Shown here piece after piece: positions 1,306-6,886 of a DNA stretch of 6,886 nt. The translations under genes and the position numbers were made by a program. This DNA is from a virus (lineage: Duplodnaviria > Heunggongvirae > Uroviricota > Caudoviricetes). The stretch lies in IMG/VR virus record IMGVR_UViG_2731957842_000003. One strand, given 5' to 3'. The notes under the pieces are model-generated. The model was not told where the DNA came from. It worked only from the letters and a program-made list of their open reading frames with translations, and made no database searches. How positions within the stretch are numbered: position 1 is the first letter of the stretch; the number at the start of each line of letters is the position of its first letter.

Positions 1306-5638
<4,333 letters not shown>

Positions 5639-5667
<29 letters not shown>

Positions 5668-6187
5668 CAATCCACCCGCCTACGTTCTCACCAGCTTTAG
5701 CTGCAACGTTGGAGGCTTTTGCGATTTCAGTTTTCACCACATCAAGGTGTGACGGTGAAATATCCGGATATTTACGCTGTAATGTCAGCGGCACACGTAC
5801 AAGTATCCCCGAAATCTCCTGTGCCACACGTTGCAGAATGAAGGTAAACAATTCCGTTTCCAGTACCAGCCCTTCTTCGCGGGCATTTTTCAGTTCCTGT
5901 GCATCAGCCTGTGCTTTTGTGAGTCGGTAGCGCTCATAGTCAATGGTGCCGGGTTGTAAATCTGATTCCGCAGCCGCACGCAAATCCTCGGTCTCTTTGC
6001 GGAGTTTTTCGTTTTCAATATCGGCTTCGCGCTGCGCATACCACTGAATTGCCATGGCGGTATCAAATACAGATTCAACCCCCTTACTACCACCAGAGAC
6101 ACAAGAGAGCCCTTGAGACTGCCAGCGTTCAATCGTTCGTGGATCCACGTTGAAAATTTCCGCGAGCTTCTTTTTATTAACCTTCAT
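5639..6187 (-). CDS. nu1: Terminase small subunit (gpNu1-like), apparently full length (182 aa)
   Basis: ATG at 6187-6185 gives [26 protein letters not shown]...[10 protein letters not shown]...[28 protein letters not shown]..., matching recalled lambda Nu1 (MEVNKKQLADIF...IENEKLRRE...[28 protein letters not shown]) at roughly 55-60% identity. The track ORF runs 18 nt further to a TTG at 6205. Stop at 5641-5639. The start lies about 180 bp from the putative cosN, as in lambda. Confidence 0.9.
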
Positions 6188-6212
6188 AAAACATTTCCAT
6201 ATCAAATGCAGG

Positions 6213-6265
6213 GTCCGACATGGAAGTGCTCAAAAACGTCTTTTTCGGGCACTTTCATGTCGGAC
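6213..6265. promoter_or_regulatory. Putative cosB: inverted pair of 16-bp repeats, candidate terminase (Nu1) R-sites
   Basis: GTCCGACATGGAAGTG at 6213-6228 and its near-perfect inverted copy (reverse complement of 6250-6265 is GTCCGACATGAAAGTG), 15 of 16 identical. A weaker related motif GTACCGACACG sits at 6313-6323. An A-tract (6285-6292) lies between repeats and cosN. The position between cosN and the Nu1 start matches lambda cosB organisation. Confidence 0.4.
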
Positions 6266-6363
6266 CTTTTACGGATGTGATTGATGAAAAAACAATGAGT
6301 TATACACGAGAAGTACCGACACGCTTTTTCCCGAAAAATTTTCATAAATAGCGAAAATCCGCG

Positions 6364-6375
6364 CCGCTGCCGCCC
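6364..6375. other. Putative cosN cohesive-end sequence of a lambdoid cos site, with a cosQ-like flank at 6391-6406
   Basis: Plus strand 6344-6380 ATAAATAGCGAAAATCCGCG|CCGCTGCCGCCC|CGTGG is collinear with the reverse complement of the recalled lambda cos junction (ATAAATAGCGAAAACCCGCG|AGGTCGCCGCCC|CGTAAC). The implied 12-nt 5' overhang is GGGCGGCAGCGG versus lambda GGGCGGCGACCT. Adjacent 6391-6406 (reverse complement ACGGGTCCTTCCGGTG) resembles the recalled lambda right-end sequence ACGGGTCCTTTCCGGTG. Confidence 0.6.
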
Positions 6376-6729
6376 CGTGGCAGACCACCCCACCGGAAGG
6401 ACCCGTACAAATAGAGTTATTATTAATTACATTTACAGTAGGAATGATGTACATCATTGAAACACCATTCAGTCATATACCGACAGCATTCGGTGTTGCA
6501 CTTCATAACTCTGCGACTACGGTTATAAAAGCATTGGCTACTTTTGCCACCGGCAAATCTTCAATGGATTTCCCCTGCCGGTTTTTTATTTTCATCGATG
6601 CATAACATTGCTTTTACATCAATAGCAGCTATTGTCAGTAGTATGTTGTATCGATGCATGGGTGGTATTGGCGATCTTCGCCGACCGGTTCTGTGTAGCT
6701 CCCTATGACCGGTTTTTTTATTTCTAAGA

Positions 6730-6766
6730 TTATAGAAGTCCTTCACTGTATGAAGGACTTCTATAA
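6730..6766. repeat. Perfect 16-bp inverted repeat with 5-nt loop; possible terminator or protein-binding palindrome
   Basis: 6730-6745 TTATAGAAGTCCTTCA pairs perfectly with 6751-6766 TGAAGGACTTCTATAA, loop CTGTA. T-rich DNA flanks it on the plus strand (GGTTTTTTTATTT upstream, CTTCTTACTTTGTAATTTT downstream). Confidence 0.5.
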
Positions 6767-6831
6767 CGCTTCTTACTTTGTAATTTTCGCACCTTCCGGT
6801 AATTCCATAGGTTAAAAAAACCTCATAATCT

Positions 6832-6860
6832 CTGACAATTTGATCCTACCCACGTAATAT
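6832..6860 (+). promoter_or_regulatory. Weak sigma70-like promoter candidate reading rightward out of the window
   Basis: CTGACA (6832-6837), 17-bp spacer, TAATAT (6855-6860), in AT-rich intergenic DNA. The match to the TTGACA / TATAAT consensus is partial only. Confidence 0.2.
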
Positions 6861-6886
6861 GGACACAGGCCTTAGCGAGGTTCTGG

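Follow-up and report, generated by a model that had tools for sequence, protein, structure and literature searches.

The locus analyzed here raises the question whether a cos site that stands beside a broken packaging module is still a genuine packaging signal and, if it is, which terminase would recognize it and whether a helper phage could mobilize the DNA attached to it. The window, that is, the whole stretch of 6,886 nucleotides of viral DNA under analysis, had been read from its letters as carrying an apparently intact cos site next to a defective packaging module, and this original prediction held in addition that the cohesive end differs from that of lambda in a way that would affect cos compatibility and specificity. 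Comparison with phage 21, with lambda and with complete prophages of Escherichia coli leads us to conclude that the region is very probably a genuine cos, intact in sequence, from a lambda-like prophage whose packaging specificity is that of phage 21.

Results

Organization of the locus

The minus strand carries all the relevant features, which, read from the highest coordinate downward, are arranged in the order IS3 end, right arm, cos, Nu1, gpA/J fusion, lom, and stf. The positions of these features are listed in Table 1, in which the subsites of cos were placed by projecting the phage 21 annotation onto the window. As predicted, cosQ, cosN and a cosB with inverted R repeats were all found on this strand beside an intact Nu1 gene. 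The insertion point of IS3 is located 436 bp upstream of cosQ, and the J fragment is marked as incomplete in the annotation of E. coli strain VG48B2 (see below).

Table 1. Features of the window and the evidence for their assignment
Feature	Position	Strand	Evidence
IS3 element end	6841..6886	.	Terminal inverted repeat TGATCCTACCCACG...; IS3 transposase annotated there in VG48B2 and ARS-C101
Phage right-arm DNA	about 430 bp between IS3 end and cosQ
cosQ (GGGTCCT), packaging-termination subsite	6398..6404	-	Matches annotated cosQ of phage 21 and of lambda
cosN (5'-GGGCGGCAGCGG-3' on the minus strand)	6364..6375	-	8/12 identical to phage 21
cosB R3, predicted TerS-binding box, phage 21 type	6311..6326	-	15/16 identical to phage 21 R3
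cosB I1, predicted IHF-binding site	6290..6302	-	11/13 identical to phage 21 I1
cosB R2, predicted TerS-binding box, inverted relative to R3 and R1	6253..6268	-	16/16 identical to phage 21 R2
cosB R1, predicted TerS-binding box	6209..6225	-	14/17 identical to phage 21 R1
Terminase small subunit gene, intact (Nu1/phage 21 gp1 homologue, 182 aa)	5639..6187	-	Pfam PF07471
Terminase large subunit gene, truncated	4327..5667	-	gpA residues 1-431 of 642, then 15 out-of-frame codons
Tail tip protein J fragment, without N-terminus and without C-terminus	1482..4376	-	Pfam gpJ domains; BLAST to the J gene of ARS-C101
lom remnant	1306-1440	-	Annotation of the 100%-identical VG48B2 stretch
Side tail fibre gene (stf)	1-1241, running off the window edge	-	Annotation of the 100%-identical VG48B2 stretch

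The reading frame of the IS3 transposase crosses the terminal inverted repeat (from 6841) and meets a stop codon only at 6823, in the flanking phage DNA. Within the right-arm DNA between IS3 and cos, a hairpin with a perfect 12-bp stem (AGAAGTCCTTCA ctgt aTGAAGGACTTCT region) is located at 6730-6770; it was not flagged by the terminator scan of 6100-6886. The scan of this same segment for promoters and terminators gave nothing above chance, the sole terminator-like match being the hairpin region of R1, and an Rfam scan of the whole window detected no RNA family. Two small open reading frames that lie over cos on the minus strand (6202-6393 and 6269-6457) gave no Pfam match and were treated as chance ORFs.

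Register and subsites of the cos site

In a BLAST search against phage records, phage 21 was 87.4% identical to the window over 775 nt. Base 6375 of the window corresponds to base 1 of the phage 21 virion record OL657228.1, where, by the annotation of that record, the cohesive end begins. The window, the phage 21 cos junction (M81255.1) and the lambda prophage junction were then aligned three ways by MAFFT, and neither in this alignment nor in the pairwise ones was a single gap found from cosN to R3, indicating that the register of the overhang is correct. A mis-registered indel at 6364-6375, the objection that had been named beforehand, is excluded by the gapless alignment with both phages between the nick and R3, and homology places this block at the predicted nicking position. 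The cos and terminase of HK97 are of a different type, for which an alignment would not be informative.

The 12-mer stands in the context ACG-GGGCGGCAGCGG-CGCGG, and its positions 1-7 are the same as in lambda and 21. The sequence features of a lambda-like cos, as defined for phages with 12-nt 5' cohesive ends (PMC4669245), are all represented: the left half GGGCGG and the CG dinucleotides flanking both nick positions are kept, the 7-bp cosQ is located about 30 bp upstream of cosN, and a complex cosB, composed of R3, an IHF site, inverted R2, and R1, is inserted between cosN and the small terminase gene. The distance from cosQ to the nick, measured upstream of the top-strand nick, is 29 nt in the window and 30 nt in lambda and 21.

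Within cosB, R3 lies at the same distance from cosN as in phage 21 (positions 50-65), and R1 and R2 form the arms of an inverted repeat of 25 nt with 88% complementarity. Three copies of the R-box core TGTCGGNMC were found in the window, each of them within cosB, where 0.47 would be expected by chance; at least three were found in 7 of 200 shuffled sequences. The R-box segments of lambda are clearly unlike those of the window in the three-way alignment. The window and phage 21 thus agree in the order of the subsites, the spacing from cosN to R3 and the R boxes (Table 1), but the window differs by a 1-nt insertion between I1 and R2, a diverged cosQ-cosN segment in which cosQ is 1 nt nearer to cosN, a cohesive end changed at positions 8, 9, 11, and 12, and a truncated large subunit.

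Terminase genes and proposed mode of action

The Nu1 protein is full-length (Pfam Phage_Nu1, E=2.3e-83). Over this length it shares 94% identity with phage 21 gp1, as compared with 53% identity to lambda Nu1. Its residues 1-27, which include the DNA-recognition helix, differ from those of phage 21 gp1 by a single change, K7 for R7. The R boxes and the winged helix-turn-helix of TerS are, therefore, both of the phage 21 type.

The gpA fragment, in contrast, is 89% identical to residues 1-431 of the 642 residues of phage 21 gp2 and then continues into unrelated codons, and Pfam analysis recognized only the first third of its nuclease domain. The terminase A gene and the virion module had been predicted to be destroyed, and this is what was found: gpA ends at residue 431 of 642, and 14.36 kb between gene A and gene J is deleted. 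Since the large subunit has lost its C-terminal third through this deletion, and with it most of the nuclease domain, the element is unable either to cut or to package its own DNA.

To judge by its homologues in lambda and 21, the small subunit (Nu1/gp1) would bind as dimers to R3, R2, and R1, and IHF would bend the DNA at I1. A large subunit would thereby be placed to nick cosN at positions 12 nt apart, as set by homology, leaving the 5' overhang GGGCGGCAGCGG, and cosQ would direct termination at the end of the packaged unit.

Origin of the locus

E. coli VG48B2 (farm environment, Switzerland) is devoid of window positions 3430-5066 but is otherwise 100% identical to the window over the corresponding stretch. 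None of the complete E. coli genomes in the collection has the exact configuration of the window. The same arrangement of IS3, cos, and Nu1 is present in E. coli ARS-C101 (beef cattle, Texas), in which it is followed by a complete structural set from A to stf (A-W-portal-protease-D-E-FI-...-H-M-L-K-I-J-lom-stf). The prophage of ARS-C101 also has int, xis, a dicA/dicC-type regulatory region, Q, and the lysis genes.

Two deletions distinguish the window from ARS-C101. The larger one, of 14.36 kb, extends from residue 431 of gpA to a point within J, and the two sides overlap by 2 bp where they meet at 4375/4376; all that lay from W up to the beginning of J was lost with it. Through the smaller one, of 0.84 kb and located at window 1487-1490, J has lost its end and lom its start. 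On the other hand, the 220-bp block from cosQ to the start codon of Nu1 shows zero differences from ARS-C101, and the segment cos-Nu1-A is approximately 99.8% identical to that of this complete prophage. In viral contigs with the same cos, or with a cos differing at one to three positions, a 639-aa ORF for gene A is followed by portal, protease, decoration, and capsid genes. The differences of R1 from phage 21 (3 of 17 positions) and the cosQ-cosN spacing shorter by 1 nt are both common to the complete relatives. Because the cos block is shared with complete relatives, nothing in cos looks like decay. These sequence comparisons altogether indicate that the prophage is one that has lost most of its head and tail genes recently.

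Two further observations concern the history of this group of prophages. The further loss of 1.64 kb from VG48B2 (window 3430-5066) points to stepwise decay among near-identical strains. The IS3 element is oriented like the late operon and, whether the prophage is deleted or complete, is found between the lysis genes and cos. Since both versions thus have an IS3 in the late operon, upstream of cos, the complete sister prophage, too, may be inactive.

The cohesive-end allele and its distribution

The predicted overhang GGGCGGCAGCGG differs from GGGCGGCGACCT, the end of lambda, 21, and phi80, at positions 8, 9, 11, and 12, while position 10 is the same. The claim that the last five bases are all unlike lambda is, therefore, correct for four of the five. 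The exact 12-mer, with the same ACG and CGCGG flanks, is present in the cos region of Salmonella phage Fels-1, although the cosB of Fels-1 is unlike that of the window and its small subunit belongs to the DUF1441 family. The changes at positions 8, 9, and 11 are present in the end of Gifsy-1, GGGCGGCAGCGT (see also PMC4669245), and the change at position 12, T to G, is present in that of N15, GGGCGGCGTCCG; both of these phages differ from the window in having cosB sequences of their own, and N15 has its own packaging specificity.

Viral contigs of IMG/VR were scanned with the 18-mer GGGGCGGCAGCGGCGCGG, and filtering of the matches by context left 69 lambda-like contigs with the AGCGG allele, in which it is joined to at least three types of cosB. 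In genome contigs, this 18-mer is a G+C-rich pattern that gives chance matches in unrelated high-GC genomes. A degenerate scan, with the left half and both nick flanks fixed, identified at least 10 further alleles of the right half. Altogether at least a dozen forms of positions 8-12 were observed (contigs L006-L092 and L217-L381), including GACCT, AGCGG, GCGCT, GGACT, GGCAT, TGGCT, and GAACT. R3 boxes of the 21 type were seen with both the GACCT and the AGCGG alleles. With GACCT, cosQ is located 30 nt from the nick; with other alleles the distance is 28-29 nt, 29 nt being usual for the non-GACCT alleles. Judged by this distribution, enteric lambda-like prophages commonly carry this overhang as a natural allele, and it is not a product of decay.

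In VT1-Sakai and a Stx2a-converting phage (L215 and L216, positions 290-330), the sequence is ACG-GGGCGGGCGGG-CGCGG, with only 11 nt between the conserved flanks, and the length or the register of this overhang departs from the 12-nt model.

A mosaic joint was observed in another viral contig (L018; IMG/VR UViG_2737471866_000003). Its positions 10500-11291 contain an IS3 end, right arm, cosQ, and cosN, 99.6% identical to window 6358-6884, and directly past cosN follow a different cosB, a small terminase of the DUF1441 family, and a 700-aa large terminase of the gpA type. As the shared sequence stops at cosN, the mosaic joint is located exactly at cosN and is later than the IS3 insertion.

Among the isolated phages of INPHARED, none pairs a 21-type cosB with GGGCGGCAGCGG, the only match being PhiR5_1, which has the canonical end; the combination has, therefore, not been observed in virions. 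A literature search for the 12-mer and its complement yielded unrelated papers only, and no publication spelling out this overhang was found. The locus was not counted as already known because no paper gives the 12-mer and no isolate pairs it with a 21-type cosB.

Discussion

Packaging specificity

The overhang had also been proposed as a determinant of cos specificity. Positions 7-12 of cosN vary naturally and commonly among lambda-like phages, and alterations in cosN's right half do not measurably affect cos cleavage (Feiss et al. 2015, PMC4669245). The terminases of lambda and of N15 hybrids show no cosN specificity, and packaging specificity resides in cosB and the small subunit TerS (PMC4669245). 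Since cosB and TerS set the specificity and both are of the phage 21 type in the window, the overhang would not set it here, and this part of the prediction is not upheld. A mismatch of 2 nt between cohesive ends is tolerated, with a decrease in yield of about four-fold (PMC4669245). The overhang would matter only for annealing, if the other end came from a cos with a different overhang.

Relation to known systems

The closest parallel in organization is the K-12 prophage DLP12 (MG1655, L386 4080-5163). DLP12-type remnants combine a complete cos and an intact Nu1 homologue with a truncated gpA and deleted head and tail genes, and the window shows the same combination. In DLP12 this same layout consists of borD and ybcV (DUF1398) upstream, a complete cosQ-cosN-cosB, the intact Nu1 homologue nohD, and a gpA fragment (the aaaD pseudogene) fused to tail-fibre DNA. 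It differs from the window in its lambda-type R boxes, its canonical GGGCGGCGACCT end, a larger deletion, and the absence of IS3 at this place. The prophages of O157 Sakai are different in that they are near full length and their packaging has been measured, whereas the element of the window has lost about 15 kb and is known from its sequence.

The cos sites of Gram-negative PICIs (Fillol-Salom et al.; PMC9026076) share with the window a conserved cosQ and cosN with lambda-like spacing, and PICI packaging depends on the helper terminase (PMC9026076). The PICI cosB, however, is proposed to have just one R3-like site, which a heterodimer of Rpp and TerS would read (PMC9026076), whereas the window contains the full R3-I1-R2-R1. 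With three R boxes and an ordinary Nu1 gene, instead of an Rpp gene, next to cos, the locus is not a cos of the PICI or satellite type.

Competence and use of the cos site

Departures from phage 21 could be taken to mean that the cos is non-functional by its sequence, as a result of the four overhang changes, the cosQ-cosN spacing shorter by 1 nt, and the three changes in R1. It is at these positions that the window departs from the experimentally characterized cos of phage 21, and the exact combination is present in no isolated phage record of INPHARED. The same bases are found, however, in prophages whose packaging and head modules are complete; both the 29-nt spacing and the AGCGG allele are widespread and occur in Fels-1 as well; and right-half changes leave cleavage unaffected (PMC4669245). 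Loss of function is, therefore, highly improbable, and the cos, as judged from these comparisons, is real and probably competent. A different matter is whether such a cos is used. It could be an inert relic that is intact merely because the deletion is recent, and that no terminase in nature uses. The remnant is 100% identical to VG48B2 and, in cos-Nu1-A, about 99.8% identical to ARS-C101, leaving too little time for decay, and the intactness of cos thus says nothing about selection. VG48B2 contains the remnant only and is without a further cos-Nu1 copy of the 21 type to serve as a resident helper, and the estimated size of the deleted element is under the usual range of lambda packaging. This reading concerns the use of cos and not its competence, since no sequence feature disables it; moreover, possible helpers are common (see below), and packaging in trans of defective lambdoid prophages has been seen in O157 Sakai (PMC2669165). 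We give it a little less than an even chance.

The opposite proposal is that cos and Nu1 are kept by selection, the remnant being a satellite-like hitch-hiker that exploits helper capsids in the manner of PICIs. What survives beside the deletion is precisely cos and the small subunit gene, and the same pattern of survival is found in DLP12. Yet the three R boxes and the ordinary Nu1 are unlike a PICI cos with its single R3-like site and Rpp, pseudogene debris persists in the form of the A, J, and lom fragments, and the deletion is confined to very few, near-identical genomes. No gene for capsid-size control or packaging redirection was seen when the ORFs of the window were scanned against Pfam. 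Such a role for the remnant is scarcely credible.

Possible mobilization by helper phages

Cutting or packaging of the locus by the terminase of a helper phage is mechanistically plausible: a phage with a 21-type terminase, whether co-resident or superinfecting, may still find a competent substrate in this cos. Packaging of passive prophages by a helper has precedent (PMC4669245). In O157 Sakai, prophages with defects in head formation or packaging are packaged (Asadulghani et al. 2009, PMC2669165), among them Sp4, in which Nu1 is disrupted by ISEc8 and the cos is identical to that of Sp14 (PMC2669165), and the cos sites of PICIs are a further precedent (PMC9026076). A search at a query coverage of at least 80% found a 21-type cos-Nu1 block in some 630 of the 5426 complete E. 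coli genomes, in most of them with 80-90% identity. This indicates that candidate helpers, as counted by sequence match, are common.

The prophage of ARS-C101 is roughly 43 kb, from which the deleted element can be roughly estimated at about 28-29 kb. This size is below the range that lambda packages efficiently. Lambda packaging without a downstream cos is likewise inefficient and gives the so-called doc particles. Downstream of the prophage, potB, potA, pepT, roxA, phoQP, and purB are located in the VG48B2 annotation, and packaging started at the cos of an unexcised prophage would pass Nu1 and the debris of the tail genes before it enters these genes. Because the element is short and no downstream cos is known at which packaging of an unexcised copy would terminate, actual mobilization is probably rare or inefficient.

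A far-reaching extension would be that GGGCGGCAGCGG marks a separate sticky-end compatibility group across phages of the Nu1 and the DUF1441 types, that cosN is the exchange point between right-arm and packaging modules, and that 21-type helpers start packaging at the remnant cos into pot, pepT, phoPQ, and purB. We regard this combination as very unlikely. If it were true, remnant cos sites would give rise to a cos-driven form of lateral transduction.

Significance

The locus is in a familiar state and adds one more case to a known pattern, together with K-12 DLP12 and the O157 Sakai prophage pool, from which it is distinct by its predicted phage 21 specificity and its Fels-1-type overhang. 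In nature, the lambda-type sticky end is highly polymorphic in its right half, and cosN seems to be the place where mosaic joints fall; both points agree with published genetics and add no new principle. The value of the finding is mostly for annotation, in that a decaying E. coli prophage can retain a fully intact packaging signal, a signal at which, in principle, the chromosome could be cut by a 21-type phage resident in the same cell.
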